Shown piece after piece: positions 1 through 62,300 of a stretch of 64,000 nt of DNA. Both the position numbers and the translations under genes were made by a program. The notes beneath the pieces are model-generated. The model was not told where the DNA came from. It ran no database searches and saw only the letters and a list, made by a program, of their open reading frames with translations. The stretch's first letter is position 1. Each line of letters begins with the position of its first letter. Source of the DNA: Malacoraja senta (Eukaryota); assembly GCA_038087875.1 (NCBI GenBank), contig CM075992.1:498001-562000 (forward strand), given 5' to 3'.

Positions 1-2704
1 GGCAGAAGCCAAAGAGAAATCGAGAAGCCAGGAGTCAGTGGAGGGGTCGACACCACAAGGTCACTTTTGAGAGCAACTCATCGAATGCAGAGCGGAAGCC
101 ATGGCAAGTCCTTAGTACAGCTGTGTGCCTCGTACAACTTGCACTGCTCACCTGACGGTTGGCATTAAGCACAGGTTGTCGAACTGAGAATAATTATTGT
201 GCAACGGACAATCCTATTACCTCGAGTTCAACAGGGCGTGATATTGAATTGATTTTGTTGATCCTGCTCTTTTGTGGGCTAGGATCAGATGGAAGGACTT
301 GGGAGGCAGTCGGAACATTACGAAAAGCACGGTGGCTGCGGGAAAAGGAGCTGTTCTCAGAGCTGGCATCGACTCAATGGGCCGAATGGCGGCACCCTAT
401 GTTGGAAAGAAAGAACAAGTTAATATAACATTTGCTATAACAGTTTGCAATTGGGATTTTTATTTTCCTTTATGTTCCCATCAGCACATCAAGATAATTT
501 CTTGCACCAGTTCTTAATATAAAGATATTTTGCAGATCCAGGAAACTCAATGCCAAATGCATGGCTTTGTATTAATTATCCTGGGCAAGTAAGTCATGTG
601 TGTGTTGTGGACAGCACTCGCGTGGTGCCTGTGGTGGGGCTATATCACTCGAGCTGACATTCTTACTCTACATGCCTATTAATGCATAAAAGCAAGATAA
701 ATATATAATGTACAATAATTTATTTTTTTATATAGTATTCTCTGCCTCAGAGGGCGGTGGAGGCCGGTTCTCTGGATACTTTCAAGAGAGAGCTAGATAG
801 GCTCTTAAAGATAGCGGAGTTAGGGGATATGGGGAGAAGGCAGGAACGGGGTACTGATTGGGGATGATCAGCCATGATCACATTGAATGGCGGTGCTGGC
901 TCGAAGGGCCGAATGGCTTACTCCTATTGTCTATTGCCTAAGCGACTTTGAGTCCTGAAAAGCGCTATATAAATAAAATCTATTATTATTATTATTAATA
1001 CATCAATAACAATAATACTAGGTAATAATAGTGCTAAACCCAAGTCTATAGTGCAACCAAAGACACTGTCCATAGAAGATCATAGTTGCTGAGGTTAGTG
1101 TTGTGTAGTGTTCAAGAGCCTAATGATTGTTGGGAAGAAGCTGTTCTTGAACCAGGAATGAGTAGGTTAACCTACGATGGTTTTGAAGCAATAACATTAT
1201 TGGGACATAAAAATGTAATTTGTGTCACAAGAGCAGTTTGAGTCTGAAGCAGGGTCTCGACCCGAAACGTCACCCATTCCTTCTCTCCAGAGATGCTGCC
1301 TGTCCCGCTGAGTTACTCCAGCATTTCGTGTCTATCTGCCCCTTATGGCAGCAACAGAAGCAGCTGAACGCCAGCGGGTGAAGCAAGGATGTCAGCTGTC
1401 AACGTTAAAGTAGCATCTGACCAATTCAGGCAGCAAGCAGTCTTGGTAGACTGGGGCAGAGGGGAAGGCATTTGAATGACTGGTGTCAGACTTTGTACAG
1501 TGGATGATGACTGACTGGTGGAGGTTGGTCTGGGTCCCAGCACACTGCTGCCCTTCCTCAGGATAGTCTGGACATAGCCATCTTCAGCTGTTTCATCAAC
1601 AACCTTCCTTTCTCCATAGAGTCAGAAGTAGTTACGTTGGCTTATGATATGATTCACCATTCCTCAGCAAATAAACCACTCTGTGCCTGCGTGCAGCAAG
1701 ACCCAGGCAACATTCTGGCTTGGACTGATTCACGTCACAAACGTGCCAGGCAGTAACCATCTCTAACAAGAGAGCATCTAATTACCTATCCCTGGCATGT
1801 TCATTGTCATACTGAGACACAAGGAACTGCAGATGCTGAACTCTTGAGCAGAACACAAAGTGCTGGAGAGACTCGGCATCAGGTGCTGTTTCAGGTCAGG
1901 ACCCTTCTTCATTGCCAGTTTCCTGACTGACAATATCCACATAGTCTCCACTGCCTGGGGCCACGTGTACACTATGACTAACAGAGGCAAAACATGCCAT
2001 GGTTTAGAGATACATCTGAGTTTTGAAAGCAGGGAGGGGAAGCGAAATACAGGGAGGATTCTGCAATTTGTGGTATGTAGGACGTCGGCAACCACTGACC
2101 CAATTATTCTTCTAAAAATAATGTTCTTATACCTATGATCTCACCAATTGTATGTCAGAACACGTGGGTGAGATCGGGCTTAATGCCGTAACTAAGTACA
2201 GCCTCTCTGACCCCTGAACTGTGAAGAGAAGCTGGAGGATTACATGAGTGAGGCCACGTGCAGCCCACCCGTAAAGACGCCTGTGTACCCTGTATGGAAA
2301 CTGATCCACCGCGCTAATGTTAGATCTCAAAGTGAACTTGTCTAAAAGCTGACGGTAGACAAAAATGCTGGAGAAACTCAGCGGGTGAGGCAGCATCTAT
2401 GGAGCGAAGGAATAGGTGACGTTTTGGGTCGAGACCCTTCTTCAGACTGCTACAAGCCGTTTCTGATGATATTTTCCATTGCTTGGACCACTCTTGGTCT
2501 GAATCCTTCCACATGCCTGTGATGGACAGTTCTAATGAAATAACATCAGCCAGAGAGTTTGTGTTGTCTTGATCATAATAAGGGCTCACTACTGGCACCA
2601 TTCATCTCAATCTATTTTCCTTTCCTCCTTGTGTCCTCTATATTCCTTCTAGAATATGCAAGCTAAAATTGTGTTCAGTATTCCGTGTCCATTACGTATC
2701 TGAA

Positions 2705-2815
2705 AGAGTTAATCAGGCGCTTATCAAATGTGCGTCAGAGTTAAGCTTCTTGTCTGGTTAATCTCATTGGGTGTTTACCAAGAATTCCTCGGGCTTCTTG
2801 TGTGGATATAAGCTA
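2705..2815 (+). promoter_or_regulatory. Putative PCP2 proximal promoter: cluster of K50 homeodomain-type sites plus TATA-like element
   Basis: TTAATCA 2709-2715, TTAAGCT 2741-2747, TTAATCT 2758-2764, TATAAG ~2807; ~280 bp upstream of ATG 3087. Confidence 0.4.
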
Positions 2816-3203: not shown

Positions 3204-6200
3204 GTAAGTATTGCAGTCAACAAACTTTCTTTATTCACTGTCGCGGAACTTGTGTGATTTATGTATAACTTGTGTATAATTTGTCTTAGTCTGTGTGCCT
3301 GTGATGCTGCTGGAAGCAAGGTTTGCATTGGACCTATAACTCACCATACTTGTGCAATTGCAAATAAACTCAACTTGACTTGAAGTCCATTGTGAGTCTA
3401 CTGGGGCAGGTGGATACTAAAGTGTGCTTCAGTCCATCGCTGTCCTCACCATTCTTGCACAGATGATGACCAACACCACTTGTCCTATCCTCTTCCTTTG
3501 TTTCTCACTGATATCTACCTCAGTGGGCTGATTTATCCCACGTTTGGACCGAGTTTTGCATGGTCACCAACACTCCTGTCTCTGGGCTATCTGCCTTTCC
3601 TTTCAGCCTGTCCCTGATTCTCTGTTCTCCATCTGTTCATCCTCCCAGAGTACTCAGTGTCCATCCTCCATTGGACCACCCCTGGGTTCTTCAACTTTCC
3701 TAGTTAACAACCTTTCCAAATTACCACTGCTAATAGGGAGGGCGGTCAGGGTGGCGCAGCGGTAGAGTTGCTGCCTTACAGCGAATGCAGTGCCGGAGAC
3801 CCGGGATCGATCCTGACTGTGGCTGCTGTCTGTACAGAGTTTGTACGTTCTCCCCGTGACCTGCTTGGGTTAGAGAGATAATGGAACAACAGAGAGAAAG
3901 ATGCAAAAAAGTAACGATGATAAAGGAAGCAGGCCATTGTTAGCTGTTTGCTAGGTGTGAATGGGAACCTGGTGTGACTTGGGTGGGGGAGGGATGGAGA
4001 GAGAGGGAATGCAGGGGTTACTGGAAGTTAGAGAAATCAATAGTCGTACCACTGGGTTGTAAGCTGGCCAAGCGAAATATGAGATGCTGTTCCTCCAATT
4101 TGCGATTAGCCTCACTCTGACAACGGAGGAGACCTAGGACAGAAAGATCCACCTGTCACTTGCCAGGCTTTGTGCTGCCCCCACTTCTCTTTTCCAGCTC
4201 CCCCCCCCCACTCCCATCAGTCTGAAGAAGGGTCCCTACCTGAAACGTTGCCTGTCCATTTGCTCTGCGGATGCTGCCAATACTACCCCTCACTTGTCTA
4301 TCGATCCTGCAACTGAACTGTGAGTTTGCAAAGTTGATCCTGCACTTGAGTCAAAGCTGTGACTCATTGCAGTAAAAGACTTGGGGAAAATCTCAAGTTG
4401 TTAAAATGCTTAAAGTAAGCTCCACTCCAGTTGACTTTCCCACAACATGCTCACCTTCCTGTGTGTGTTTTTCATTAATATCTGTGATCCTCATCGTCAA
4501 AGTGACAGTAATGTGTGGTAATATCTCTACTAAGTCGATACAGGTCTTTTGTGGGGTCACAAGGCATTTGGTAAATGTATGAATGCGAAACAGATTCTCT
4601 GCCGTGTTAGGTTGTACAGTGACCTCATTGTATAGGATTTGTTTTAATCAAGATTAATACAGCTCACAAAATGTAATCGCTCTGTGTGTTTCAGTGGGAG
4701 ATATTGTTTTGCACCACCTTTTGCGGTTAGATTCACTGCCTATCGCATCCCGATAATAACTGTTACATTCAGCCTACTTCTGTATGTTTCATTTATAGTT
4801 TAAAAACTGCAGAAGCTGGAAATGTGAACAATGAAAATCTGTAAACATGCAGGAATCAGACCAGTCTGTCTCTCTCACCACATAGGCAGGCTGAGCTGCT
4901 GAGTTTTCCCTGAGTTTTTATTTTTGTTGGTGTCCTTTGCATTCAATAATTCTGCCAGCGCACTTTCCAGCTCGCTTTCACTTCCATCGGACTGACCAGA
5001 CATTATGGCTCATGATGTGAGGAGCTGAAGAATCGCGAGCAAAAAACAAAAAAGAGCTGGAGGAACTCTGCGGGTCAGGCAGCATTTACGGAGGGAATGG
5101 ACAGATGACGTTCCATGTTGGGGCCCCTCTTCAGACTGATTGAAGTGTATCTGTGTATTGGGGGGGAGACCAAAATGATTAGGGAATGTCGGGTTTAGCA
5201 TGGACGGGTGTATCTGCCAGTAAATCCAAGACTCTTGATAATCGGTTTAGTTTATTGTCACGTGTAGCGAGGTACAGTGAAAAGCTATTGTGTGCTAACC
5301 AGTCAGTGGTAAGACAATACACTGTAAATGGCTCGATTGTTATCATGTATGTGATAAGGGAATAGTGTTTAGTGCAAGGTAAAGCCGGTAAAGTCTGATC
5401 AAGGATAGTCCAAGGGTCACCAACGAGGTAGATAGTGGTTCAGGACCGATCTCTAGTTGCGGTAGAATGATTCAGTTTCCTGATAACAGCTGAGAAGAAA
5501 CTGTCCCTGAATCACAACTGTCTCAAAATGCATCGCAAAATAAATGGTACAAGAAGACCGAATGGGAGAGGAAGGACGACAAAAGACAGCTTGTATTTTT
5601 AGACTCGATCATGAACAATCCTCAGGGGCTCAAGAAGAATTACGTGTTGTTATGTAAAGGGTAGAACATCGGGAGGGAATCCGATCGAGTCGGCACGGAG
5701 TTAATTCAATGACACACAATGTCAGAGGGGTCAGGGTGACGTGGACAGTGATCAGAGTGGCGACATCTCACGAGGCAAGGAGGAAGAATCACTACTGGAT
5801 GCGAGGGAAGATGAACGAGGAAATGGACTGAGAATTGGCCAAAGACTAGACGAAGAGGAGAAGATGGAATGAATAAAGACTTTATGACAATTCACAGTGA
5901 AATTCCTTGCTTCCATACCCAATGTATGCAAATAGACGCCACATAAAGGGTGCTGACTCAGTTAAAATGATCCATCTCCCCTCCTCACGGTGGCCCCCTC
6001 AGGCCGGGTCCTCCTTTGAGAGAGGTGATGTTTGCAATGTGTTGCAAAGAACACGGTAGAATGACGGACAGAGCAGGCCAGGGGTGACAGAGTACTGAGG
6101 GTGGAAGTCTAGTGCATCATGCTAACAGTGTTCATATTGAAATGTATCATGTGTTACTATGAATCAGAAAGGTCCCCGACATCGGGTCCGGACACTTCTT

Positions 6201-9200
6201 CAGACTCAAAGACCGAAGATTTTTGAGTGTCTGAGTAAGGGTCCCCACCCAAACGTCACCTATCTTTTTTCTCCAGAGTTGCTACCTGACCCGCTGAATT
6301 ACTCCAACACTTTGTGAATATCTTTGTTGTCCAGAGCGGCTGTCAAACTTGTGGTGGGAGCGGATGAGAAGGTTCGATTCCCGTGCTTTTATTTTCAGGA
6401 GTGTTTTATCGTCAAATGTCCTAGATAGAACAATTAAATTCTTACTTGCAACAGCACAACAGAATGTGTAAACATAGTACATATTCAACAGGTACATGGA
6501 TAGGACAGGTTTGGAGGGATATGGGCCAAACTCAGAAAGGTGGGATTAATGTAGCTGGGGCACGTTGTATATCACTCTATGACTAAGTAAGAATTTCATT
6601 GTTCTATCTGTGACATAAGACATTTGTCAGTCCCAGATCCAAGCGATTCATCTTTGGCTTCTGTTCTCCCCACCGCAGGAAAATGAAACAGAAAATGAAG
6701 GATTCTTCAACATGCTGAGTCACGTCCAGAGGAACCGCATGGATGACCAGAGGTGCGACCTCCGTGAGAGCGGGACACCCTCCCATAGATCAACGCTGAT
6801 TGAGGCCTGTGGTGAGTACGGCATAGGTATTGTAGCTACAGGGCGGGCAGGCCACTCCCAGCAACATGGAGACACACGGAACAAAGGCATGTGGGTGGGG
6901 GGGACCATCGTGTGGGAGCTGCGTAGAGGACAATGGACAATAGGGGGGGGTGGGGATAAAGGACAATGGTGACCAGGCGTGGGGGAACCGCTGGGGGGGG
7001 GGGGACAAAAAGTGGAGCCGGCATGCTTTGTAACTTGGTCAGCACCCTAGGTGGCTGTTATTTGTATACATCGCGTATACAAGCAAAGAATCTCACTCCG
7101 CCTTGTCACATGTGACAATATTCCATTCCATTCCACCCTGAGCAAAACACAAAGTGCCAGCAGAACTCGGTAGGTCAGGCAGACGGAATGGGTAGGCAAA
7201 GTTTCAGATCCAGTCTAAAGAAGGGTCCTGACCCAAACCCTCGTCTGTCCACTCCCTCCACAGATGCTGACTGACCCGCTGAGTTCTTCCAGCAATTTGC
7301 ATTCCAATGTCTGAATAAGGGTCTCGACCTGAAACGTCACCTATTCCTTCTCACCAGAGATGCTGCCTGTCCCGCCGAGTTACTCCAGCATGCTGTGCCT
7401 ATCTTCGGTGTAAACCAGCATCTGCAGTTCCTTCCCTCACAATGTCACACGTACAAAACACAGTTATTTTTCAAGTTGCCAAATTTGGCGGCGTTTCCAA
7501 AGTCCGGTCGACACACTGGGTCTTATGGGGTGTGTCGGAATATGCGCCTTGCTACATTTAGTCCCCTATTGACAAAAACAGCAGCAGCTCATGATGCCAA
7601 GGTACGGAGCAGTAGAGTCACAGAGAAAGATTACTTGCAAATTACTCCTTTCAAAATGAATGAATGAATGAATACTTTATTGTCATTATAACATGTAAAC
7701 ATGTACAACGAAATTAGAAATGCCAATCAGTCAGTGCACACATTTTCTTAGAGCAAAAGTCTAAGATAAACAACTAAAATAAATAACATGAAAAAAAAAA
7801 CACATTCTTCTGTCGATTTCCCAGTCCCTTTGGTGTGTAGCACACCTGTACTCATTTGGTGGCTACATTAAGTGTATTTATTGCTGTGGGATAAAAACTG
7901 TTTTTGAGTCTGTTTGTCCTTAAGTGTCCTTAAGTGTCCTAAAAGTAAGTGTTCTTGAGTTTTCTCAAGGGTCAGAGCAACCTGCTCCTTTTTAAAATTC
8001 GTACCATAAGACATTGGAGCAGAATTAGGCCGTTTGGCCCATCGTGTGTACTCCGCCATTCTATCTTGGCTTGCGTGCTGATGTTCAGATGACTCCGTTG
8101 TTATTGGCATTGACCGTGTGAATAAATCCGCTCTTCACCTTCTCTGAAGCAGATAGCAGCTCAGACCGGCCCATCAATGAACTCCTGGACATGCTGGCCG
8201 ACAAGCAAGGGCAGCGGCTGGACGATCAGCGAGTGACCTGTGACAACCTACCCGGTCTGCAGCTGTCCACCTGCTGCCTCCCGTCCACGGACGAAGGTGA
8301 GCAGCTCTCCGCACTACCTCACTCATAAGGGATAGGAGCAGAATTAGGCCATTCGGCCCATTAAGTCTACTCCGCCATTCAATCATGGCTGATCTATGCC
8401 TCATAACCCCATTCTTTTGCCTTCTCCCCATAACCCCTGATGCCCCGTACTAATCCAGAATCTATCCATCACTCTTAAAAATATCCACTCCTCTTCTCTC
8501 AGCTTGGATGAATGATCCCTCTGAACTGTCCTCTTTTTCTTCCTTCACAGCTGCTGCATGACTTGGCTACTTTTTCCAACACTTTTCCTTTGTTAAAATA
8601 TTATATTGACTCATTATAATATTTAGTTTTCCTTATCATAGTCATACAACGCGGAAACAGGCCCTTTGGCCCAACTTGCCCACACCGGCCAACATGCCCC
8701 ATCTACACTAGTCCCACCTGCCCACGTTTGATCCATATCCATGCCAACCTGTCCTATCCATGTACCTGTATAACTGTTTCTTAAACATTGGGGTAGTCCC
8801 TGCCTCACCTCCTCTGGCAACTCGTTCCATACACGCACCACCCTCTGTGAGAAAAATTGTTACTCCTTCAGATTCCTATGAAATCTTTTCCCCTTCACCT
8901 TGAACCTGTGTCCTCAGGTCCTCGATTCCCCTACTCTGGGCAAGAGACTGCATCTGCCCGATCATGATTTTATACACCTCTATAAGATCACCCCACATCC
9001 TCTTATTATAACTCTTGCCTTACCAGACAGGTCCCACCTTACCATCAATACCATATTACTCAGACCCAGAAACTTCATGCGTTGCTGCCATTAAACCATT
9101 TTCAAAACATCCTATCGCAGCCATTCCCACGCTGTATCTTTAACTAAACTCCATTGCTCTGCACACCCCCCAACCTTCCCTCTGACAGCAAATTGAATTG

Positions 9201-10443
9201 CATTTCTCTTTTCCAATTCACAGACTCAGAACATCGACCGTTTCACTTTCCACAGATTCTGCCTGGCCTGCTGACTTTTTCCAGCAGTTTCTATTCTTAT
9301 TTCATCTTTCCAGACTTTGCGGGGTTTTCGTTTTGATATTCAATGTGGTGATTAATTGTCAAACCTATCAATTCCTTCTCTGTCCTTCTGTACATGTGAC
9401 AAAATATACATTGTTCGGGTTGATCACTGCACCCAATTCCTGTCAAAAAATGGTTTGAAGCAAGATTCCTAAAGTAGACAACAGGCACAGAACAGCCATT
9501 CAGCCTCTTGTGCCTGTACTATCTCACAATTGAGCTATTGGAAGAGAAGCCAGTGATCCAGAGGCAACTGGAAATCTAAAACTCTTTAAAATTAATTGTC
9601 CAGTTGTTGACGACTATGAAATACATCACCAGTTCTTTATCATCATAGTGGCACAGCTGGTAGTGCTACTGCCTCACAAACCCGGAGACCTGGGTTCGAT
9701 TCTGACCTTGGGTGCTGTCTGTGTGGAGTTTGCTCATTCTCATTGTGACCAAGTGGGTTTCTCCGGGTGCTCCGGTTTTCTCCCACTTTCCAAAGACATG
9801 TGGGTTTTCAGCCTCTTTGAATTGCCCCTGGTGTAGGGAGTGGGATAATGTAGAATTAGTGCGAACGGGTGATCAATGGTCGTTGTGGATCCAGTGGGCG
9901 AATGTCATGTTTCCGTGCTGTATCTCTAAACTGAACTCAGCATGGGAACTGGGGCCCAGGTGAGTTGGAAAACAGCTGGTGAGGCTGGAGCAAGTCAGAA
10001 AGCAGGGCCCCAGTGAATCAAACGAGAGGACAGCAAACATTCGTGGGGAGCCAAAACATCCAGTTATCTAAATGTTTGGAAAGTGGAAACAGGACCGTGG
10101 TCTCTGGGGGATGGGCAGTTGCCATCACCTCTAGCCTGGCTGTCGATGGCTCAAACGTCTCTCTCACTTGATGACAAACCAGCCTCGAATCCATTCAAGC
10201 AGTGCTCCCAGGTTTAAAAGCCTCCTCCATAGTCAAATTTTGTTCACATTGAAATATTATCCACCCCCTCCCCAGCACCCAGCACCTCTTCAATACGCAC
10301 AAAAACATTTTAGTCTAGTTCGACAGTGCGCAACTTAGCTTGTGCTGTCCTGGACCAAATACACTCCGTTCCTGTTTATGTACCGTCTAACATCTGAAGC
10401 AATTATTTTAATTATTTTCGTTTTAGAGACTGAGATTGAATAG
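3087..10443 (+). CDS. PCP2: Purkinje cell protein 2 (two GoLoco motifs), multi-exon gene model: 3087-3203, 6679-6811, 8150-8296, probable last exon 10427-10443
   Basis: Exons 2 and 3 translate to EGFFNMLSHVQRNRMDDQRCDL and INELLDMLADKQGQRLDDQRVTCDNLPGLQ, matching the two GoLoco motifs of PCP2 as I recall them. Canonical AG/GT sites, consistent phases (0,1,1), and synteny with XAB2/CAMSAP3. First and last exons are inferred from splice signals and phase only. Confidence 0.85.
6679..6811 (+). CDS. PCP2: PCP2 exon, GoLoco motif 1
   Basis: Pyrimidine tract + CAG acceptor; ENETENEGFFNMLSHVQRNRMDDQRCDLRES...; donor G|GTGAGT. Confidence 0.9.
8150..8296 (+). CDS. PCP2: PCP2 exon, GoLoco motif 2
   Basis: ADSSSDRPINELLDMLADKQGQRLDDQRVTCDNLPGLQLSTCCLPSTDE; AAGCAG tandem acceptor; donor AAG|GTGAGC. 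Confidence 0.9.
10427..10443 (+). CDS. PCP2: PCP2 candidate terminal coding exon (ETEIE*)
   Basis: TTTTCGTTTTAG acceptor, phase 1 compatible, stop TAG; AATAAA at 10927-10932 followed by T-rich sequence. Inference only. Confidence 0.4.
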
Positions 10444-11834
10444 GGACGTCCCAGGACAGGATCAGGTTCCTGTTGGGCCTGAAGAATATCCAGATCTGAC
10501 TCACTGTCAAACAGTCAGAGGGAACACCACAGGACCATCGCTGCTTTTACAGTCTGAAGAAAGGTCTCGACCCGAAACGTCGCCCATTCCTTCTCTCCAG
10601 AGATGCTGCCTGTCCCGCTGAGTTACCCCAGCATTTTGTGGCTGCTTTTACATATTAACCTTTGTGAACGTGTCTTCATTGGAGACTAACCTTTCTGCTT
10701 TCTCTCGTGGCTCTGTGACTTGGATAAGTGAGTTGGACATTGGTTTTTGTAGCCCGATCTTCAATGTGAAACATCACCTTCCCAGCGCGTCCAAGTCTCC
10801 TTGAGAATTGCCTCAATGCTCTTAGAACCAGCATATCAGAATTCACTGTAAAACAAAATGCATCGCTTAGACCTTTCCATTTAAAATGGTACAAATATAT
10901 TAATACATGTGTTGATATTAAATATTAATAAATACAGTTAAATGTTAAAATACTTGATTTATTGATCTTTATTTGCACATTTTTCATCTGATAAATTAAT
11001 TTGGGCTCAGTTTCTGATGTTGAATAGATTGTTTAATTAACAGCTGTACTTCAGTTCTAAAGACCCCTCGGCTCCTTGAACATGAATGAATAAGTTTATT
11101 GGCCAAAAATGTACACATACAAGGAATTTGCCTTGGTGCTCCGCTCGCAAGTAACAACACAACATACAGTAAACCATTAAGAATAAAACATAAAATATTA
11201 AAACATTAAGAATAAACATTATAGTTTAAACATGTGAATGAAATCTTCTTCTTGCGTATGGCGTGCACAGCCTAAAGTTGCAGGACAACTTGTTCTAATT
11301 GATCTTATTTGATTGTGCACGCCAGGTTGATTGCATTGGTTGAAACAGGGCGGACCACGTGCAGGTTGCAATCTCCCACCCCTGTGAATGAAATAAAATA
11401 CCTGAACAAAAGGAGGCTAGACTTTTGGTTATTGAGTAGAGCTACTACTCGTGGAAAAAAATCTGTTTTATGTCTTACTGTGGCGGCTTTGTATCACTAT
11501 CACTCTATGATGCTCCTCAGCTTCTTCCCGCAGGTTATAAGACTGATAAACGGACTTTGTCCCCTGCCAAAGTATCGTGCACCAACCACCAACCTGGACA
11601 CACTGCAGCAGAGCCACTGTCGTGCTGCTGCCGATCGGAACGCCTGTTGATGTTTAGTAGAGTAGAGTGTTAATTTGTTCATGATATATGTATTTTTGCT
11701 TCTATTTATTTTTTACTGCACACTGAAATGGACACTGGTTGAGGAACGTTTTTTTGTTTCCTCTGGGTATGCGAATACTCAGGAAATGACAATAAAGATA
11801 TACAATACAATACAATGACACTATAACTGTACAC

Positions 11835-12050: not shown

Positions 12051-12139
12051 CTCCACACAATATTAATAATTTTTGTTTGGAGACACAAACTAATAAACGC
12101 CACAAGATTCACACCAATGCCCATGTGTCCCCCCCCCCC

Positions 12140-12269
12140 CCAACACGTCTACGTCAATCAATCAGTGGGAGTGGGAGGAGGAACGGCATGATGTTCTAGA
12201 GAGTGACGTCGGCGTTGGCCAATGGGAGCGGTGCGGGGGCGGGACCGGGACCAACTGGGACGGGGTCAG
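12140..12269. promoter_or_regulatory. Upstream promoter block of XAB2 (CRE-like, CCAAT, GC box)
   Basis: ACGTCA ~12151, GTGACGTC 12203-12210, GGCCAATG ~12217, GGGGCGGG ~12236; CpG-rich. Confidence 0.5.
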
Positions 12270-12822
12270 AGGTACACAAAAATGCTGGAGTAACTCAGCA
12301 GGTGCACCAGCATCTATGGAGCAAAGGAAATAGTCAACGTTTCGGGCCGAAACCCTTCTTCAGACTGATGGGGGGTGGGGAGAAGAAAGGAAAAAAGGAA
12401 AAAGGCGGAGGAGGAGCCCGAGGGCTGGGGGAGGGGAGGAGACAACCAGAGGGCTGATGAAGGGGAGGGGACAGCAAGGGCTAGCAGAATTGGGAGAATT
12501 CAATGTTCATGCCCCCAGGATGTAGACTGCCCAAGCGGAATGTGAGGTGCATTTCCTCCAATTTACGGTGTTGCTCGCTGTGGCCCATGGAGGAGACCCA
12601 GGACAGAGAGGTCAGATACGGAATGGGAGGGGGAGTTGAAGCGCTGAGCCACCGGGAGGTCAGGTTGGTTATTGCGGACCGACCGGAGGTGTTGGGCGAG
12701 ACGATCGCCAAGCCTCCGCTTGGTCTCACCGATGTAGATCAGCTGGCATCTAGAGCAGCGGATGCAATAGATGAGGTTGGAGGAGATGCAGGTGAACCTC
12801 TGTCGCACCTGGAACGACTGCT
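12270..12822 (-). mobile_element. 5'-truncated Penelope-like retroelement (GIY-YIG endonuclease C-terminus + terminal repeat with hammerhead-like motif)
   Basis: FTCISSNLIYCIRCSRCQLIYIGETKRRLGDRLAQH...EEMHLTFRLGSLHPGGMNIEF (one frameshift); flanked by the 14-bp duplication TGGGACGGGGTCAG (12256-12269, 12823-12836). Confidence 0.9.
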
Positions 12823-13672: not shown

Positions 13673-13849
13673 AGAGGGAGAAGAGAGGAAGAGGAAAAAA
13701 GGAAGAGGGGAAGAGTAAGAGAAGAAGTGGAGAGTGGAGAAGAGTAGGGGAAGGAAGAGAGAGAGAGAAAGAAGAGAGAGAAGAGGAGAAGGAGGAGCAG
13801 AGGGAGTGAAGGAGTGAAGGAGAAGAAGGAGGAGGAGGAAGATAAGTCT

Positions 13850-47000: not shown

Positions 47001-47034
47001 GAGATGAGGAGGGATGGGGAGGAAGAAGAGTCCA

Positions 47035-47331: not shown

Positions 47332-50300
47332 CTGCAAGGAAGCAGAAGGTGGTAAATGACGGATCTGTTTGCAACACCCCAGTCAGAATGTGCCGTCAAG
47401 TTTAGTTTGGTACGGTACGGTACTTTATTTGTCACTTGTACCGAGGTACGGTGAAATACATTTTGTATTCAGTTCAGTACAAGTATCACTGTACATAGAT
47501 ACATCTTAGATAAGCTTCTCAGATACAGTACCAAGTGTATAACACTAGTACACTGTGACAGTATACACAGTCGCCACGGGATAGTTTATAGATACAGTGA
47601 CGAACAACCATCCCCGTACACAAGCACTATCCTAGATATTGGACATAAGTGATAGGAGCAGAATTAGGCCATTCGGCCCATCAAGCCTACTACACCCTTT
47701 CAATAATGGCTGATCTATCTCTCCCTCCTCACCCCATTCTCCTGCCTTCTCCCCTTAACCTCAGAGACCCATACTAATCAAGAATCTATCTATCTCTGCC
47801 TTAAAAATATCCATTGACTTGGCCTCCACAGCCTTCTGTGGCAAAGAATTCCACAGATTCACCACCCTCTGGCGAAAGAAATTCCTCCTCATCTTCTTCC
47901 TAAAGGAACGTCCTTTGATTCTGAGGCTGTGGCCTCTGGTCCTAGACTCTCCCACTAGTGGAAACATCCTCTCCACATCCATTCTATCCAGGCTTTTCAC
48001 TATTCGGTAAGTTTCAGTGTGGTCCCCCCCCCCCCCCTCATTGTTCTAAACTCCAGCGAGTAAACGCCTCCCACTGGTGTGACCAAAGAACAATCAATCT
48101 CACCTCCAATATCTTATTCTTCTGGGGCTCGTTCACCTTGCCTGCCAGGCAGCAGCGAGCGATCGCGTTCTGTATTATGTACTTATTCGACTTGGCACTG
48201 GGTTCCTTGTAGAGTTTTGGACCTGTGGGAGGGAAAGATAATGTATTTGTGTGATTGTTTTTTTACGTTCAGTGGAACTGGGCATTAATACATTAAGGGC
48301 TCCAGTTAGCCTTCCCAAAGCAGCATCCGGGGAGAGAAACTAACAAGTATTGAGTATTGTATTCTACTCTAAATTATCTTCTGGCCCCAACTGGAGAGAG
48401 GCACGGTGGCGCAGCAGTAGAGTTGCAGCCTCACAGCGCCAGAGACCCAGGTTCGATCCCAACTACAGGTGCTGACTGTACAGAGTATGTACGTTCTCCC
48501 TGTGACCGAGTGGGTTTTCTCCAGGTGCTCCGGTTTCCTCCCACACTCCAAAGACGTGCAAGTTAATTAGAGATACAGCGCAGAAACAGGCCCATCGGCC
48601 CACCGAGTCCGCACCGACCAGCGATCCCCACACATTAACACTATCCTACACACACTAGTGACAATTTACACTTACACCAAGCCAATTAACCTACAAACCC
48701 GTACGCCTTTGGAGTGTGGGAGGAAACCGAAGATCTCGGATAAAACCCACGCAGGTCACGGGGAGAACGTACAAACTCCGTACAGACAGCACCCGCAGTC
48801 AGGATCGAACCCGGTTCTCTGGAGCTGTGAGGCAGCAACTCTACCACTGCACCACCGTGCCGCCCACGTTGTACCTCTCTGTGGGAGAGGTCTCTGCCCA
48901 GTCTCCACTCATAGATCACTCACCTGTATACTCTGGGATGGAGGCAGGTGAGGAGGCTGTCGAAGCATTCTCCCAGTCCTTCTCCCCATTGTGGTTCCCC
49001 AGTCGGTTCGGAGACTGGAGCCCTGTGGGGGAATTCATCCTGTGGGTGTGGGGGTGGGGGGTGGGGGGGGGGGGCAAAAACATGACAAATCTGATTAATA
49101 AAATAGAAACGAGTCAGCAGGAACAAAATCAAGAGTTCTTGGCATCTATGTGACAATTTTAACCAGCACAACCTGCAAAGGATAACAGATATATTGTTAT
49201 ATAACAGTTATATAGAATGCCCTGGAAAACTCACTGAGGGAAAGTGACAGTTGCTCATGCATGCTAGATTGTCCCACATATCCGTGAACAATGCACAATG
49301 TAAATATGTATAAAACGCAGAGAATCTTCAGATGCTGGAATCTTGTAAAATTTATGGACAGTCAAACATAAAGTGCTGGAAAAACTCAGTGGGTCGGGGT
49401 GTCTCAGAGTCTGTAGAAGGGTCTCAACCCGAAACGTCATCTGTCCATTCCCTCCACTGATGCTGCCTGACCCGCTGAGTTCCTCCGGCACTCAGTTTTG
49501 TACAGAATATAAAATACAGCCTGATTTTTACGGGGAATTAAATCATGACTGACAGGTGCAATGAGGTAGCTACAACGGACTAAACTACACAACAAGGATC
49601 TTGCACTAAGGACATTCATTCATGGGTGAAGAAAAGCAAAGCATGGAAGAACCACTGATGTTTACAGCATTAAGCAACTTCTGTTCCAGCCTCAGTCTTT
49701 CATGAAGCAAACAGCGGCGACTTAAAGCCCTGTAAACAGCAGGATTTATTCCATTGGTTCTTAAATATACCTATTCAGTCCAATGTTTCCTGCGCTGCAA
49801 GAGAAGCAATAGGAAGTATTAGACATGCAGTATTGCCTGGGTTAAACACCTTAATGACTCATTATTTTCACACACAAAAAATCGGTGTAAACCAACAAGC
49901 ATCCTTTCTGATAATTTAATTTAATTCTCCCTCCAGAGTTACCCCTCAGATTCCTATTACATTTTCCCCTCTTCACCCTTAGCCCACAATATGTCCTCTG
50001 GTCCTCGATTCCCCTACTCTGGGCAAGAGACTCTGTGCATCTACCCAATCTATTCCTCTCATGATTTTATGCACCTCTATAAGATCATCCCTCAACCTCC
50101 TGCGCTCCAAGGAATAGATTCTCAGTCTACTCGACCTCTCCCTGTAACTCACACCCTCTAGTCCTGGGAACCTCCTCATACCATCCTGGCAACATCATGC
50201 CTAAGTCCTTAAAGTTTAGACAGTCATGTTTCATCACCTCAGGTTGCTCCCTTCACAGTCCATGGAGTAATGCTGGAAATGTGGTCCCCACGCACAACAC

Positions 50301-53300
50301 AAAAAGAGGCCCCATAAACCACAATCTGGCAATGATTAGATAAATCACTCCCACATACTGCGGATGTCCATCTCCCCACTGAACCCCCACCCCCAACCCC
50401 AACTCCACCTCCACCCCCACCTCCACCCCCACCCCCAACTCCACCCCCACCTCCACCCCTAACTCCCACCCCACCCCTAACTTCACTCCACCACCAACTC
50501 CATCCCCACCCCCAACTCCACCCCCACCCCAACTCCATCCCCACTCCCACCTCCAACTCCAACCCCAACTTCACCCCCAACTCCACCCCCACCCCCAACT
50601 CCATCCCCACCCCCAACTCCACCCCCACCCCCAACTCCATCCCCAACCCCAACCCCCACCCCCAACTCCATCCCCACCCCCAACTCCACCTCCACCCCCA
50701 ACCCCAACTCCACCTCCATCCCCAACTCCACCCCCACCGCCAACCACCCCCAACTCCATCCCTACTACCACCCCCATCCCCACTTCCACCCCCATCCCCA
50801 TCCCCATCCCCACCTCCACCCTGTGCATGAGCCGGAACATCAGCAGAGAGTTGCTACCTTGGGCTTTTCTTGACGGACAGACTGTTGGAGTCATTGACCA
50901 TGGTGGAGAGCGAGAGTGTGGAGCGCGAGTAGACTTTGTTCAGTCTGGAGCCTGGAAGTAAAAGCAGAACGGCAGGCGATCAATGCTGGAAAGCAATACA
51001 AAACTAGAAATAAAAGTTTAGAGATACAGCGCGGATACAGGCCCTTCGGCCCACGGAGTCCGTGGCGGGCAGCGATCCCCGCATGCTAACACGTACACAC
51101 TAGGGACAATTTACAATGTTATCAAGCCAATTAACCTGCAAACCTGTACATCTTTGGAGTGTGAGGGGAAACCAAAGATGGCACGATGGTGCAGCAGGTA
51201 GAGCTGCTGTCTCACAGAGCCAGAGTCCCGGGTTCGATCCTGACTACAGGCGCTGTCTGTACGGAGTTTGTACGTTCTCCCCGTGACATGCGTGGGTTTT
51301 CTCCGGGTGCTCCGGTTTCCTCCCACACTCCAAAGACGTACAGGTTTGTAGGTTAATTGGCTTTGGTAAAAAATTGTAAATTGTCCCTAGTTCCTCCCCT
51401 GTGGGGCAGAGAGAGGTCAGAACCACTCCTCGCCCCAACCTCCCCTCTCCCCTCAGAACCACTCGCTTGCTGTACCCCCCCCGCGTACCCTGTAGCCATG
51501 TGTTAGTGAGCGGCAATCGCTGGTCGGCACGGACTCAGTGGGCCGAAGGGCCTGTTTCCGTGCTGTATATCTAAACTAAACTAACAGAGGCCACCTGCCC
51601 CACAGTTGTAGTTGAGGGGTTCTGCCACTGGAGGGAGCGTTGAGAACCTATCATGACACTGTAGGTAGACAAAATTGCTGGAGAAACTCAGCGGGTGCAG
51701 CAGCATCTATGGAGCGAAGGAAATAGGCAACGTTTTGGGCCGAAACCCTTCTTCAGACTTCAACACTGTAGTGTTGGCATCATTGAAACATTCATGGGCG
51801 CTGCAATGATGCAGGAACAGGGCATCTACACAGGAAGATCCCGTTAATAGGGATAGGAAAACAACCAGACTATCACTTTCACCGCCGTTTAGAATGGGCG
51901 ATCGATGGTTGGCGTGGACTGGGTGGGCCGAAGGGCCTGTTTCCGCGCTGAATCTCACGAATCAAGAGTGTTTTACTGTCAATAGACACAAGAAGCTGGA
52001 CTCACGCAGAATGACTCAGCGGGACAGGCAGCATCTCTGGACAGATGGAATGGGTCGAGACGCAGAAATCTGTGCCTCAGGTCATCTGCAAGATGATTGA
52101 TTGGCTGCCATTTGGAGGATAGGTGGCACAGCGGTAGAGCTGCTGCCTTATAACGCCAGAGACCCGGGTTCGATCCTGACCACGGGTGCTGTCTGTGCGG
52201 AGTTTGTACGTTCTCCCCGTGACCTGCGTGAGTTATCTCCGGGTGCTCCGGTTTCCACCCACATTCCAGGTTTGTAGGTTAATTGGTTTCGGTAAAAATT
52301 GTAAATTGTCCCTAGTGTGTGTAGGATAGTGTTAGTGTGTAGGGATCGCTGGTTGGTGCGGTCAGAGAAGGCAGGGGAATGGGGTTAGGAGGGAGAGATA
52401 GATCAACCATGATTGAATGGCAGAGTGGACTTGATGGGCCGAATGGCCTAATTCTACTCCTATTCCTTATGACCTTATGGACTGCGTGGGCCAAAGAGCC
52501 TGTTTCCGCGTTGTATCTCTACACTAAAGTGCAACCCACCTAGAAGCCCCTTGACGGGACTGCGGGTCAGGACAGAGTCATCCCGAAAGACGGAGGATTT
52601 GGGACGGGGCTTCCTCCCTTGGTTTGCGGGAGACTTTGCTCTCAGGACCTTGCCCAGGTCGTCCATCACCTTCAGCTGCTGCCGCCGCAGGTACTCCTCT
52701 TTGATGAAGTTCTTCTCTGGTCGCTCCTCCACCTGTTGCCTGAAATCAAACAGCTCAGCAATTAAAACCCAAACATCTCCGTACATTTTACACTCCACCC
52801 CCACTCTCACAGTGGAGCAGCGGTAGAGTTGCTGCCTCACAGCGCCAGAGACCCGGGTTCCATCCTGACAACGGGTGCTGTCTGTACGGAGTTTGTACCT
52901 TCTCCCCATGACCTGCGTGGGTTTTCTCCGGGTGCCCCGGTTTCCTCCCACACTCCAAGGACGAGCAGGTTTGAAGGTTAATTGGCTTCTGAACATTGTC
53001 GCTAGTGTGTAGGATAGGACTTGTGTATGGGGCGATCATGGTTAGCATGGATTCAGTGGGCCGAAGGGCCTGTTTCTGCAGTGTATCTCTAAATCAAACT
53101 AAACTAATCTAAAGCCTTGTCTACAGTGTTGTCAGGGACTTGCTCCAAAGTAATACAAGGCAGGATTGTGCAGGAAGGAACTGCAGATGCTGGTTTAAAC
53201 TGAAGATAGGCACAAAGTGCTGGAGTAACTCAGTATCTCTGGAAGAAAGGAATTGGTGACGTTTCAGGTTGAGACCCTTGTTCTGTCTGAGAGTCGGAGA

Positions 53301-56300
53301 AAGGGAACGAGAGATATAGACGGTGACGTAGAGAGCTCTAGACGGTGACGTAGAGAGGTCTAGACGGTGATGTAGAGAGGTCTAGACGGTGACGTAGAGA
53401 GGGACCGCATTATAATCCCTCACCTGGTCTGCTCTTTCTCCGCATCCAACCACAGTCGCCTCTTCCTGAACTCCTCCGTACGTTTCTGCTGCTTCTCCAT
53501 CAGAGCGGCTCTCTTCAAAGCCATCTCCTCTTCCGCCTTGGCCTCATCCTGTTGCAAGTTGGCACAGAATTACAAAACATCTCAGAAATAGTCCTGTTGT
53601 AGCCTTTGGCTTCAATTTAAAAGCAGCTGGTGGATCAACCTTAGGTCGAGTGTGTGGGGACCAGTTCCAATAACCCGAGCGTGAATGTTTTAGAAACAAC
53701 GAGGTTATTGTCAACGCTCAGCAGGTCAGGCAGCATTTGTGGAGAGAGGAACTGCCTCAGTGTTTCAATCAGCTCCATCCAAGACTGCAAGAAACTGCAG
53801 CATATGGTAGACGCAGCCCAGACCATCGCACAAACCAACCTCCCTCCCATTGACTCCATCTACACCTCACACTGCCTCGGCAAGGCCAGCAGCCCAGACC
53901 ATCGCACAAACCAACCTCCCTCCCATTGACTCCATCTACACATCACGCTGCCTCGGCAAGGCCAGCAGCAGCATCAAGGACGAGTCGCACCCTGGCCACT
54001 CCCCCTTCTCCTCTGTCCTATCGGGCAAAAGGTACAGAAGTGTGAAAACGCACACCTCCAGATTCAGGGACAGTTTCTTCCCAGCTTTTATCAGTCAACT
54101 GAACCATCCTACCACAACTAGAGAGCGGTCCTGAACTACTATCTACCTCATTCGTGACCCTCGGACTATCCTTGATCGGACTTTGCTGGCTTTACCTTGC
54201 ACTAAATGTTATTCCCTTATCATGTATCTGTACACTGTGGACGGCTCGATTGTAATCATGTGTTGGTCTTTCCGCTGACTGGTTAGCACACAACAAATGC
54301 TTTTCACTGTACCTCGGTCCACGTGACAATAAACTAAACTGAAACTGATCAATGGCTTTACAAATGTGGACCAGTAATATGTTGGACACAGCCCACCTGG
54401 AAGAAATGGGACTCCTCCTAATAGACAAACAAGACCAATTCTTAACGAGTTGATCTCCATTTATTGATTTTTTGGATTCACGTGGTGCAACAGTATCGTA
54501 AAAATTAAAAGTTTCAGGTATGGGTGAAAGATGATCAAGAATCTAAAAACGCTTGTGGCGAGTGGATAATCTCCCTCCTGCTTCACTTTCCTACTTATTT
54601 CTTTTCTTTACTAGCTCTTTTTCTCTCCTTTTTTTTCCTTCTCCCCCACACACACCAGACTTTCCTCTATTCTTTACTATCTCTTTCTTTCTTATCTCTC
54701 TCTCTTAAAAAAAAAAGGAAGTTGTACAGAGAATGTATTATGGTAACATAATTTTGGGAACCTGTAAAAGGCACCACTGTATTGTACTTACTTCTAATAA
54801 ATAAAATGTTTCAAAAATAATAATTTAAAAATGGCTTTACACGAGAAAGCCAAATGATTCCAATGTTAAGCGTTGACTCTCCACGGATGGTGCCCGACCT
54901 GCTGTGTATTCCTGCTTTGAATTTTAGCATCAATAATCGATTATAATTATTGCTTTCCAATAATCGCTATTTTTCTATATGACTTGGCCATTGATTAAAT
55001 CGATTATATGTGTCTACATAGGTCCCTTTATTCAATAAAGGAGGCACTGTCATGGGAGACAACCCAGACAAGTTCCACCAAGTAATTCCTGGAATGTTGG
55101 TGTTGTTCCATTGCAAGTGACCACGAAAGTTACAGAAGCAAGGAACTGCAGATGCTGGTTTACAAAAAAACGACACAAAGTGCTGGAGTAACTCAGCAGG
55201 TCTGCGGAGAACATGGACACGTGATGTTTTGGGTCAGGATCCCTTGATCAGGCAATGAGACTAAAGAAGGGTTTCGATCCAACACCTCACCCATTCATGT
55301 TTTCCGGAGATGTTGCCTGACCCGCCGAGTTACTCCAGCACTTTGTGTCTTTTTTTGTTGTAAACCAACACCTGCAGTTCCTTGTTTCCAGCCAAAGTTA
55401 ATGTTTACATTCAGTTCCGACAGGATTCTGGTCATTCTGGTCTGACGAGGAGTAATTTAAATAAAAACACCAGCGCGGGCCACTCAGTGGTGACTATTTT
55501 TGTAGCAATCTTTTGTGGTGGTGGCAACGAAGGCGGCCTTACCCCTTGTACCGGCCTTACCCCGTGTACCGACCTTACAGTGGGCTGTACGGATCCGTAC
55601 CGGCACCATTCACTGCTACCATCACTTCCTAATGACACTACAATCACCCTGTGCCTCGGCTCATTGCCGTCTACTGGAGTCAACTGTGAATTCACCAATA
55701 CTTAGACAACTTGCTAATTTTGTTCTTCTCGTTTTACCCACCATCCCTCTTTCCCTTCTCCAACATTCCTGTCTCCCTCGACGTGATCCCACCACCAGTC
55801 ACGTCTTCCCATCCCACCTCGTTCTGCCTTCTGCAGAGACCACTGCCTCTGCAACCCCTTCCAACCAAACCAAGCGCTTTCACCTGCAACCTGCTGGAGA
55901 TGCAACACCTGTCCCGATACCACCTGTGTGTAGGATAGTGTTAGAGTGCGGGGATCGCTGGTCGGCACGGACCCGGTGGGCCGAAGGGCCTGTTTCCGCG
56001 CAGTATATCTAAACTAAACAAACTGTGCCAGAGGAGGGAGTTCTGTGGACAGGCGACCAATAGCTTGACTGGGTGTTTGAAGCGGTTCTTAAAAAGAGCA
56101 AAGAGGGTCCTAACCCTATATCTAACCAAAGGACACACATTAAAAAACACGCCCAGTCAGTGCCCACATTGCCCAGTGTGTGCGGAAGGTAATGCAGCAA
56201 GGAACAGAACCAAGGGCTACCAACCTTGAAGAAGAAGCCCACGGACTTGGTTTCCGAGTCCACTTGTTCGCTTGTAGAGTCTTCAGTTCCCTCTAGCTCA

Positions 56301-59300: not shown

Positions 59301-62300
59301 AGTGGAGTGGAGTGGGGTGGAGTGGAGAGGAGTGGGGTGGAGTGGAGTGGAGTGGAGTGGGGTGGAGTGGGGTGGAGTGGGGTGGGGTGGAGTGGAGTGG
59401 GGTGGGGTGGAGTGGGGTGGGGTGGAGTGGAGTGGAGTGGAGTGGAGTGGAGTGGAGTGGAGTGGGGTGGGGTGGAGTGGAGTAAACACTGCGGAGGTGC
59501 AGCGTTGCTTGATCTCAAGGGAAACAGGCAGGATACTGTCCCTCTCGCTGGCTCACACTCAAACAGCTCCTCCACCAAGCCCACAGTCTGGTAGAGCCCA
59601 CACTCCCCTCCTGTCTGACGATGGGTGTCGGCCCGAAACGTTGCCTATTCCTTCTCCATAGATGCTGCTCCATAGATGCTGCCTCACCCGCTGAGTTTCT
59701 CCAGCACTTTTGTCTACCTCCCCTCCTGGGATAAATAAAGTGTTATTGTACACTACACTACGCCAAACTACAATGAACTAATGAAAACTAAACTTATAAC
59801 CCCCCCCCCCCCCCACCCGGCTACATTCACCACGATGTAATTACCTCATCAGCTGTTTCTTGGTCCAGGCTTTCCCAAAGGAATCGACTTGTGACATTGA
59901 AGTGGAGTGATGCAGCGGCCCTGGGAAGACAGGGAGAGATCGGCAATGTTTGCGTTTAAACAGATTAACAAATGGTCAGAGATTCACCTCGGCCGTTGTT
60001 TTGATTCTGCATTATATTTCATCTTTATTATTTATTGATCTATTTTTTGTATATTTATTATATTTTCTACAGAGAACTGGGTTTACAGATTTGTTGTGGA
60101 AGGAACTGCAGATGCTGGTTTAAACCGAAGATAGACACAGAGTGCTGGAGTAACTCAGCGGGACAGGCAGCATCTCTGGAGAGAAGGAATGGGTAACGTT
60201 TCAGGTCGAGACCCTTCTTCAGACACATGTTTACATATCTGTTTGCTCTCAACCCCATTCTCATTCCTTCTCCCCATAACCCCTGACACCTGCACTAATC
60301 AATAATCTATCTATCTCTGACTTGGCCTCCACAGCCTTCTGTGGCAATGAATTCCACAGGTTCACCACCCTCTGACTAGAAATCTCCTTCCTAAAGGTAC
60401 ATCCTTTTATTCTAAGGCTATGACCTCTGGTCCTAGACTCTCCCACTAGTGGAAACATCCTCTCCACATCCACTCTATCCAGGCCTTTGATAAAGATGTG
60501 ACAATTGACACATTCTCACAGCCTTTTTTGTCCTTTCCATCTCTGGCTTTTACCCAATTTTCTGCCTATCAACTCTCTCGCCTACATCCACCTATCACTT
60601 GCCTAGCTTTGTCCTGCCCCCACCTCTCCACCAGATTTCTTTCATCTACTAAAATCAGTCCGAAGAAGGATGATAACTGGTCAGTGTGGAGTCGGTGGGC
60701 CAGAGGATTTGTTCATAGCAAAAGGATTTGAGTATAAGAGCAGGGAGGTTCTACTGCAGTTGTACAGGGTCTTGGTGAGACCACACCTGGAGTATTGCGT
60801 ACAGCTTTGGTCTCCCTAATCTGAGGAAAGACATTCTTGCCATAGAGGGAGTACAGAGAAGGTTCACCAGACTGATTCCTGGGATGTCAGGACTTTCATA
60901 TGAAGAAAGACTGGATAGACTCGGCTTGTACTCGCTAAAACTTAGAAGATTGAGGGAGGATCTTATAGAAACTTACAAAATTCTTAAGGGGTTGGACAGG
61001 CTAGATGCAGGAAGATTGTTCCCGATGTTGGGGAAGTCCAGAACAAGGGGTCACAGTTTAAAGATTAAGGGGAAATCCTTTAGGACCGAGATGAGAAAAA
61101 CATTTTTCACACAGAGAGTGGTGAATCTCTGGAATTCTCTGCCACAGAGGGTAGTTGAGGCCAGTTCATTGGCTATATTTAAGAGGGAGTTAGATGTGGC
61201 CCTTGTGGCTAAAGGGATCAGGGGGTATGGAGAGAAGGCAGGTACAGGATACTGAGTTGGATGATCAGCCATGATCATATTGAATGGCGGTGCAGGCTCG
61301 AAGGGCCGAATGGCCTCCTCCTGCACCTATTTTCTATGTTTCCTGACCCGAAGAGTCACCTATCCATCTTCTCCACAGATGCTGCCCGACCCGCTGGGTT
61401 ACTTCTGCATTGTGTCACAGAGTGATACAGCGTGGAAACAGGCCCTTCGGCCCAACTTGCCCACACCGGCCAACATGTCCCAGCTACACTAGTCCCACCT
61501 CCCTGTGCTTGGCCCATATCCCTCCAAACCTGTCCTATCCATGTGCCTGTCTAACTGTTTCTTAAATGTTGGGATAGTCCCCGCCTCAACTACCTCCTCT
61601 GGCAGCTTGTTCATTACACCCACCCTCTGTGTGAAAAAGTTACCCCTCAGATTCCTATTAAATCTTTCCCCTATGACCTGATACCCATGTCCTCTGGTCC
61701 TCGATTCACCGATTCTGGGCAAGAGCATTGTGTCCTTTAATGATTTACACGGCCAACATTCCCCACTGAGTTTCACTCCGGCACCTTTGTTATTGTTTCT
61801 GGGTGGGACTATGGAGCAAATCAGAAGTTTCAGCCATGCAGAAAAACACACTGTAATCCTCAGTGGGTTTTATTAAACTGCCACAGGTAAACAAACCACT
61901 GTTGTAAACCACTGGAAAACAAATATCCAAACTGAGAAGATATCATTAGCCTTCAGCCAGCTCACAGAGTGAGTCAATTTGATACCGAATAGTGATGTTT
62001 CCGAATGGTGGATACATCCACTAGTGGGAGAGTCTAGGACCAGAGGTCTCAGTCTCAGAATTAAAGGACCTTCCTTTAGGAAGATGAGGAGGTGTTTCTT
62101 TCATCAGAGGGTGGTGAATCTGCGGAATTCATCGCCACAGAAGGCTTTGGAGGTCGTCATTAGGTATTTTCTAAAGAGGAGATAGATAGATTCTTGATTA
62201 GTACGGGTGTCAGGGGTTATGGGGAGAAGGCAGGAGAATGGGGTTGAGAGGGAAAGATAATTGCATGGCGGAGTAGACTTGATGGGCCGAATGGCCTAAT

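Follow-up and report, generated by a model that had tools for sequence, protein, structure and literature searches.

Hammerhead motifs of Penelope-like elements (PLEs), their solo copies and PLE-derived retrozymes were already known, and the family described in this study is a further member of this ensemble. The dimer activity of minimal PLE hammerheads was low (PMC4209133), one of nine Xenopus dimers was active (bioRxiv 2026.07.22.740005), and in PAc, a Poseidon element of Anolis carolinensis, cleavage was protein-assisted and dispensable for insertion (PMC11167929). Retrozymes of the non-LTR kind (lacking long terminal repeats, LTRs) were found in one cartilaginous fish (bioRxiv 10.64898/2026.07.22.740005) and an intronic PLE expansion was recorded in whale shark (10.1101/443036). 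An initiator (Inr)-type internal promoter is present in Penelope of D. virilis (PMC2377424), Inr-like motifs occur in rotifer pseudo-LTRs (PMC3846280), and the hallmarks of Neptune elements are a reverse transcriptase (RT), a DKG motif, a Cys linker and, at the C terminus, a GIY-YIG domain (PMC8557442). The DNA analysed here, hereafter the window, is a 64-kb stretch of the 1.94-Gb genome of Malacoraja senta (contig CM075992.1, labelled C16, positions 498001-562000), in which an abundant short repeat carries a hammerhead-like core.

In our reading, which we hold at a probability of roughly 0.8, this repeat is the terminal repeat, together with the ~30-bp tail, of a young Neptune-type PLE carrying a minimal type I hammerhead motif, and most of its short copies are likely run-off complementary DNAs (cDNAs) of the uncleaved 5' leader. 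A profile search of the window yielded 60 matches on both strands (5,779 bp), the hammerhead part being present in 38 of them. When the 200 kb of neighbouring DNA were added (264 kb altogether), 246 matches covered 8.3% of the bases, and three block shuffles gave none. Across the whole genome, the exact pattern of the intact core matched 35,949 times and its reversed control never, from which a rough total of ~0.9 million fragments was extrapolated (local ratio of 10 exact patterns per 246 matches). An earlier note, written from the letters of the window, had described such an abundant repeat on both strands, and this observation is confirmed: the copies it quoted at 17981-18008, 20253 (CTGATGA), 59615 (CTGACGA), 33255 (AGGT/ACCT) and 20814 (GGGT/GCCC) were all located as claimed. 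The repeat is thus real, yet its size had been underestimated, since the 28-nt core is only one part of a unit of ~135 bp.

The relationship with a PLE, which the same note had proposed, was borne out by linkage to RT/GIY-YIG open reading frames (ORFs). Searching the genome for GIY-YIG domains uncovered two PLE types. For the first one, the repeat followed the GIY-YIG end at a distance of 90-207 bp and on the same strand at 15 of 16 dispersed loci (19 junctions), the interval being occupied by a C-rich 3' untranslated region (3'UTR); at the 16th locus, the repeat was interrupted after a few bases by another insertion. A protein search of the genome scored 100 copies with identities of 96-100%, and all 20 long-ORF copies that were fetched, ~99% alike, ended in the repeat. 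Five of these (L078-L081 and L091) also displayed the whole repeat immediately in front of the ORF or of its beginning, in a pseudo-LTR or partial tandem arrangement. Frames reached 1,224-1,302 amino acids (aa), or ~1,210 aa for the ORF counted from its first Met, which stands ~40 nt downstream of the tail. They comprised a long N-terminal region of low complexity, DKG and YIDD motifs and a CxxxxCxxC linker upstream of a GIY-YIG domain scoring 24.7 bits (cut-off 22.6); Pfam RVT_1 gave no match in the protein fragment examined. Judged by these protein motifs, the element would belong to the Neptune clade.

The shape of the copies pointed in the same direction. Positions in the repeat are counted from C3 of the core (C3 = 0, so that H17 = +27). 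The 246 matches of the 264-kb region displayed two classes of 3' ends, at model positions 90-111 (119/246) and 128-135 (85/246), and ends were mapped at about +92-95 and +128-131; the two classes lie ~35 nt apart and correspond to copies without and with the ~30-bp tail. Head-to-head pairs were much more frequent than expected by chance (49 versus 7). Flanking matches of 8-17 nt were found for ~12 of the 20 long copies, and 13 of 56 solos displayed a duplication of at least 10 nt ending no more than 30 nt from the core (in the swapped control, 0.05 up to 8 nt away and 1.7 at greater distances). Together with the GIY-YIG and ORF linkage, the two 3' ends, the head-to-head pairs and the target-site duplications therefore identify the repeat as the PLE's own end.

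Copy ends were related to a fixed 5' edge and hardly to the cleavage site. Starts fell at model positions 2-9 in 123 of the 246 matches and at 34-36, where cleavage is expected, in six, while no 3' end at all was recorded at positions 30-40. Similarity was lost within ~5 nt of the core in 94 of 115 anchored copies, the other 21 running on into the 3'UTR. Among young copies on contig C1, 33 of the first 34 listed started at -8 to -1 (13 copies), at -13 (one) or beyond -137 (19), and target-site duplications directly abutted the 5' edge. In addition, short pieces containing only the core were joined directly to a new unit in 684 cases (L242-L271), the pieces mostly ending at about +25 to +38 and seldom further, a broad distribution judged by eye on the first 100; such pieces could be short capped transcripts or result from RT resetting. 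Cleavage-defined ends were rejected, as no 3' ends occurred at the site and 5' junctions were flat across +24 to +32 (first 100 of 1,161 by eye, and also by script). Because copy ends were not piled up at the cleavage site, the inserted RNA was mostly uncleaved.

These ends also bear on the proposal, made in the earlier note, of a self-cleaving, retrozyme-like RNA family, and on the rival view of an independent non-autonomous retrozyme spreading as self-cleaved circular RNA by means of Penelope proteins. PLE-derived retrozymes have been described (bioRxiv 2026.07.22.740005), and eight tandem arrays with 138-384-bp units made of the repeat and the ORF start (L181, L193, L219, L221, L222, L234, L237 and L241) were encountered elsewhere in this genome. 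Six of these contain the full hammerhead in units of ~220-384 bp and are retrozyme-like; the two that lack it (138 and 165 bp) start at the first base past the cleavage site (+28), one of them with 1-nt ambiguity, so that cleaved RNA may sometimes be used, although this is a small hint. Yet the whole core sits at the 5' end of the copies, no accumulation of either copy end is seen at the cleavage site, the flat 5' junctions indicate unit ends that are not set by self-cleavage, and young solos are 94-99% identical to the end of the autonomous element. Among the tandems examined, complete hammerheads occur only in the six arrays, the tandem units of the window lacking half of the core. We therefore regard an independent retrozyme as highly improbable; the copies are pieces of an autonomous element's end, and the earlier interpretation is partly supported, through its PLE origin and its minimal type I hammerhead architecture.

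The nature of the 5' edge was examined at junctions. Where the templated C at -4 was absent, a G stood in its place more often than the ~28% expected, in 27 of 37 repeat-to-repeat joins scored by eye (23 of 32 without repeats, p=3e-7), in 10 of 16 fetched loci and in 38 of 100 cases genome-wide (p=0.02); a G also preceded the A at -6 in 9 of 19. Copying of the cap as an extra G is seen in other retroelements. Of 47 loci with a tail/ORF junction, 45 could be mapped and 13 of these started at -8 to +1; nine loci joined an internal piece ending at +219 to +858 to a unit starting at -7 to -1, three of them via A-runs. From the edge 1-8 nt upstream of the core, the untemplated G and the jumps to RNA 3' ends, we infer a putative capped transcription start and run-off cDNA synthesis. 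Alternatively, the sharp edge could reflect an RT stall, endonuclease resolution or the stop of a 5' exonuclease at a protein-bound hammerhead/tail domain, an explanation that fits the position of the edge at the base where pairing of stem I ends, the C-rich tract found just upstream of it and the predicted fold of a young unit, in which the core is paired to the tail end. From a block of this kind, however, no additional G would be expected at the two specific A's (-3 and -6), and joins to A-tailed internal pieces are better explained by a real RNA 5' end, which makes it unlikely in our view.

Two other origins of the solos were tried and discarded. For splicing, with the polypyrimidine-CAG before the core as 3' splice site, a single genome match joined the endonuclease end to the core within the donor contexts that one search pattern covered; moreover, duplications abutted the edge with no exon between. 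Long 5' transduction from transcripts of the host was discarded because the three distant matches obtained for solos lacking an extension turned out to be other repeat copies.

A capped start would fit the following scheme. Transcription by RNA polymerase II would begin on an initiator-like A located 3 or 6 nt before the hammerhead core. The element protein would nick DNA, priming would be internal, at either end of the tail, and the RT would run ~100-135 nt to the capped 5' end. The resulting cDNA could insert as a solo copy, fold back or meet a second cDNA and give a head-to-head pair, or jump to an RNA 3' end and yield tandems and pseudo-LTR forms. The hammerhead would be unnecessary for making short inserts and would decay neutrally after insertion, being kept in master elements as a putative weak cutter that depends on dimers or on protein.

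At the sequence level, the motif is that of PLE minimal type I hammerheads, as the earlier note had recognized: CUGANGA, GAAA and UH boxes, an extra base after A9, G10.1-C11.1 and a palindromic stem III agree with the published one (PMC4209133). The majority of every subfamily displayed CUGAAGA, the extra A, G10.1-C11.1, a 4-bp stem II, GAAA, an ACGU or AACGUU palindrome, C or U at H17, and a stem I of only 2 bp with a mismatch at the third position. All features were retained in 30 of 131 ungapped copies. Among 170 distinct copies, conservation of non-CpG core sites reached 0.95, compared to 0.88 for downstream sites (p=0.015) but 0.94 for downstream sites free of lineage variants (p=0.29), and other blocks of the repeat were as invariant as the core. 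Of the ten core sites, none was hit by lineage variants, compared to 15 of the 54 remaining sites (p=0.054); the variants inside the motif (loop 2, 11.4 as wobble partner, H17 and 1.1) were compatible with pairing throughout and would all be ribozyme-compatible. Since the core in copies decays at the background rate and lineage variants spare it, the constraint on the hammerhead appears to act on master elements and not on inserted copies.

Structural selection as the cause of the copy variation described in the earlier note was not supported. Position N7, presented as variable, displayed a second allele at 4% in the 170 copies. Double-sided changes in stem II, which had been taken as compensatory, occurred at chance level. 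At 10.1-11.1 there were six, with an expectation of 3.7; C11.1 belongs to a CpG site, and the quoted pair fits CpG decay. The three other pairs had 2, 2 and 1 against 1.8, 1.0 and 1.8. Apart from these chance-level double changes, stem changes within the family were one-sided wobbles; a different paired stem II occurs in the sister PLE (see below). The suggested Rfam scan of the window was negative for hammerheads (E<=1); this test was insensitive, because the canonical telomeric hammerhead of the sister family was missed as well. A search for more divergent families with N7=Y gave mutated copies of the same family in the 100 of 165 matches listed, and the variants listed inside the motif in contigs were limited to H17 and 1.1, the 90% filter narrowing what could appear.

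The motif might also be catalytically vestigial in this lineage and kept for another role, either as a promoter inside the element or as a site bound by protein. Its ACGT palindrome, at about +28 from the putative start, is reminiscent of the Penelope downstream promoter element (DPE). The 2-bp stem I, predicted folds that are not hammerheads, intact sense-strand cores within introns of an XAB2/SYF1-like gene and the equal invariance of other repeat blocks agree with this, as do the internal Inr/DPE promoter of D. virilis Penelope (PMC2377424) and the lack of cleavage in eight of nine Xenopus dimers (bioRxiv 2026.07.22.740005). We nevertheless judge it somewhat unlikely, considering that lineage changes inside the motif are all ribozyme-compatible, that the core is kept in the sister PLE whereas its stem II, fully paired, differs, and that the equally minimal Anolis motif cleaves with its protein (PMC11167929).

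Several points weigh against a PLE whose capped, mostly uncleaved leader gives rise to the short copies. Both the start site and cleavage are predictions from genomic DNA. The extra G could be explained by untemplated RT addition, and across the genome it is only modestly over-represented. Folding does not predict the hammerhead as the minimum structure, its pair probabilities are ~0 in the full unit and stem I has only 2 bp. Two of the eight tandem arrays, as mentioned, begin at the cleavage site. Finally, of the six near-full-length copies extending as far as the upstream repeat, five pass the edge, so that a second route is needed (tandem or circular template, seamless transfer).

The second PLE type, a sister family whose protein is 34% identical to that of the main one, comprised a 597-aa ORF (with a weak GDSL-like match below cut-off) and a 759-aa RT+GIY-YIG frame. 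Its elements formed head-to-tail arrays with runs of the telomere hexamer; contig C17, for instance, starts with telomere repeats followed by the element. Sites were recorded at L023:2285-2350, L046-L048, L304, C14:18.24-18.41 Mb, C15:13.71 Mb and C17:2-7.5 kb as well as on unplaced contigs. It displayed a canonical type I monomeric hammerhead with predicted stems of 8, 4 and 5 bp, of which 87 exact genome matches were clustered near scaffold ends or on small contigs. At truncated-unit junctions, all nine distinct cases switched directly after H17; eight could be placed within the unit, with an ambiguity of 1 nt in one case. To all appearances, this family is a vertebrate PLE that is associated with telomeres and bears an endonuclease, no report of which was found in our literature search, and it is possibly more novel than the main finding.

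A third ribozyme-bearing retroelement was a SINE-like (short interspersed element) repeat of ~165 bp with a hepatitis delta virus (HDV)-like ribozyme of CPEB3 type, located in the window at 30965-~31130 (+) and also at L098-L101. Its 5' end is G1 of the ribozyme, its 3' end is (AAG)n, and duplications of ~10-12 nt and at least 40 copies were recorded. Rfam CPEB3 scores were 29 bits in the window, whose copy has a P3 mismatch, and 33.3 in L098 (cut-off 35). Sister PLE and HDV-like SINE thus display cleavage-defined ends and the window family does not: within one genome, the SINE starts at the cut site, the telomeric PLE ends there, and the main family mostly ignores it. This contrast argues against intronic copies as active self-cleaving RNAs.

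More broadly, but only tentatively, as we put it at a little under even odds, missing steps of Penelope replication may be recorded here: a capped start 3-6 nt before the hammerhead, priming inside the leader, a strong-stop-like cDNA and an obligatory jump from cap to RNA 3' end for the ORF to be copied. Failed jumps would have left several hundred thousand hammerhead-bearing stubs, while the sister endonuclease-bearing PLE would set its RNA 3' end by a canonical hammerhead and stack in arrays at vertebrate telomeres. The value of the family lies in the material, since it is young, has intact ORFs and offers tens of thousands of clean junctions; two questions become testable, the origin of pseudo-LTRs and inversions and the role of the hammerhead.

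The profile search also gave the list of copies in the window, and the hammerhead state of the 38 copies was scored ungapped. Core boxes were kept in 16 and, together with the 4-bp stem II, in 13; only three, at 20814, 44710 and 59615, kept all motif features, so that G10.1-C11.1, the palindrome and the 2-bp stem I were present as well. These belong to a full young-type copy with a 13-nt duplication (20810..20940, +), a full copy (44583..44715, -) and a copy with an 11-nt duplication that stops 1 nt short of the core on its 5' side (59612..59720, +). Further full copies were found at 17979..18109 (+, with tail), 20249..20382 (+, with tail and a 12-nt target-site duplication whose end is separated from the core by 1 nt on the 5' side), 23725..23857 (-, 3'UTR upstream, U4 mutated), 33250..33383 (+, A-U in place of G10.1-C11.1) and 60097..60226 (-, C11.1 changed to T). 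The first of these was the lead example of the earlier note; its core is indeed at 17981-18008, but stem I is absent as its 5' strand is lacking.

Among the other monomers, G8 was mutated at 1240..1360 (+) and in a copy with tail at 7307..7436 (+), G12 at 2346..2449 (-, to A by CpG decay) and in a young-type copy at 51654..51760 (-), and U16.1 at 28960..29073 (+, 3'UTR upstream). The 3'UTR also preceded a copy at 53170..53289 (-) and, in C-rich form, a short one at 4217..4280 (+), and a young-type copy at 12269..12368 (-) reached into it. Additional copies were one of an old subfamily (5051..5139, -), one with a 12-nt target-site duplication directly at the 5' edge (10550..10647, +), one within an intron of the XAB2/SYF1-like gene (15472..15579, +), a short one (18846..18903, +), one clipped at the 5' end (32206..32300, +) and one without tail (43826..43924, -). 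Decayed copies lay at 1821..1911 (-), 6227..6334 (+), 24282..24406 (-) and 39163..39250 (+). Fragments comprised an old one with a weak match (9224..9290, +), parts of the 3' region (34157..34240, +) and of the tail (35578..35620, -), one whose start adjoins the cleavage site (51975..52055, -), a small one (53717..53754, -) and one at 61343..61416 (+).

Apart from monomers, the window contained inverted pairs. Head-to-head pairs occupied 7141..7299, 14270..14523 (with a core in each partner), 14745..14954, 37276..37484, 43487..43684 and 55139..55383. Inverted pairs were further noted at 16352..16468 (two fragments), 25139..25285 (a single ~12-nt duplication flanking the whole pair), 41393..41658 (with an internal 32-bp duplication), 49323..49496 and 16769..17195; the last one includes 66-bp tandem units devoid of the CTGAAGA half of the core, and units of the same length, without the first half of the core, recurred at 63738..63956 (-).

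Two host genes were apparent in the window, a SYF1/XAB2-like gene at 15053-41915 (+), with intact sense-strand cores in its introns, and a CAMSAP-like gene at 47035-58288 (-). G- or C-rich tandem arrays occurred at 12824-13674 (17-bp units), 50383-50821 (6/18-bp) and 58637-59483 (5-bp). Fragments of long interspersed element (LINE) RT frames at 26170-27256 and 60712-61725 are presumably CR1-like, and a frame at 36655-37227 (-) resembles what we take to be a Tc1-type transposase fragment. Self-comparison displayed further repeat families.

With respect to the literature, neither this PLE family nor an edge combining a cap with jumps was found to be described; the search did not extend to Arkhipova et al. 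2017 or to Lunse et al. 2017, in which cleavage data and examples from chondrichthyans may already be listed. Two of the three supplement files of PMC4209133 held no shark or skate terms. With the pseudo-LTR minimal hammerheads of that study (Cervera and de la Pena 2014, PMC4209133), the family shares the core boxes, the extra base 9/10.1, G10.1-C11.1 and the palindromic 15.2-16.2 as well as massive solo copies, only some of them inside full PLEs. Stem II has 4 bp and stem I 2 bp here, the published stem I counting 4-5 bp in Schistosoma and 2 bp in D. virilis, and the copy number far exceeds the 4,000-9,000 of coelacanth and Xenopus. Common traits with non-LTR retrozymes (bioRxiv 10.64898/2026.07.22.740005) are the origin from PLE terminal repeats and hammerhead-bearing tandem arrays, although the window, unlike these retrozymes, contains monomers and inverted pairs and no tandem units with a complete hammerhead. 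Like Neptune-clade PLEs (Craig et al. 2021, PMC8557442), the element displays a single ORF with RT, DKG, Cys linker and C-terminal GIY-YIG, partial tandems, an inverted 5' copy and a 30-40-bp tail; it differs by its long low-complexity N-terminal region, and the clade is placed by motifs only. Finally, as in PAc (Frangieh et al. 2024, PMC11167929), a pair of internal RT start sites would lie at the borders of the tail, a minimal hammerhead stands upstream of the tail and uncleaved RNA appears to be the main insertion substrate. The ORF of PAc begins inside the hammerhead, whereas the first Met lies past the tail here, and the fixed 5' edge with its extra G, which is not described for PAc in the available parts of that source, is a feature of the present family.

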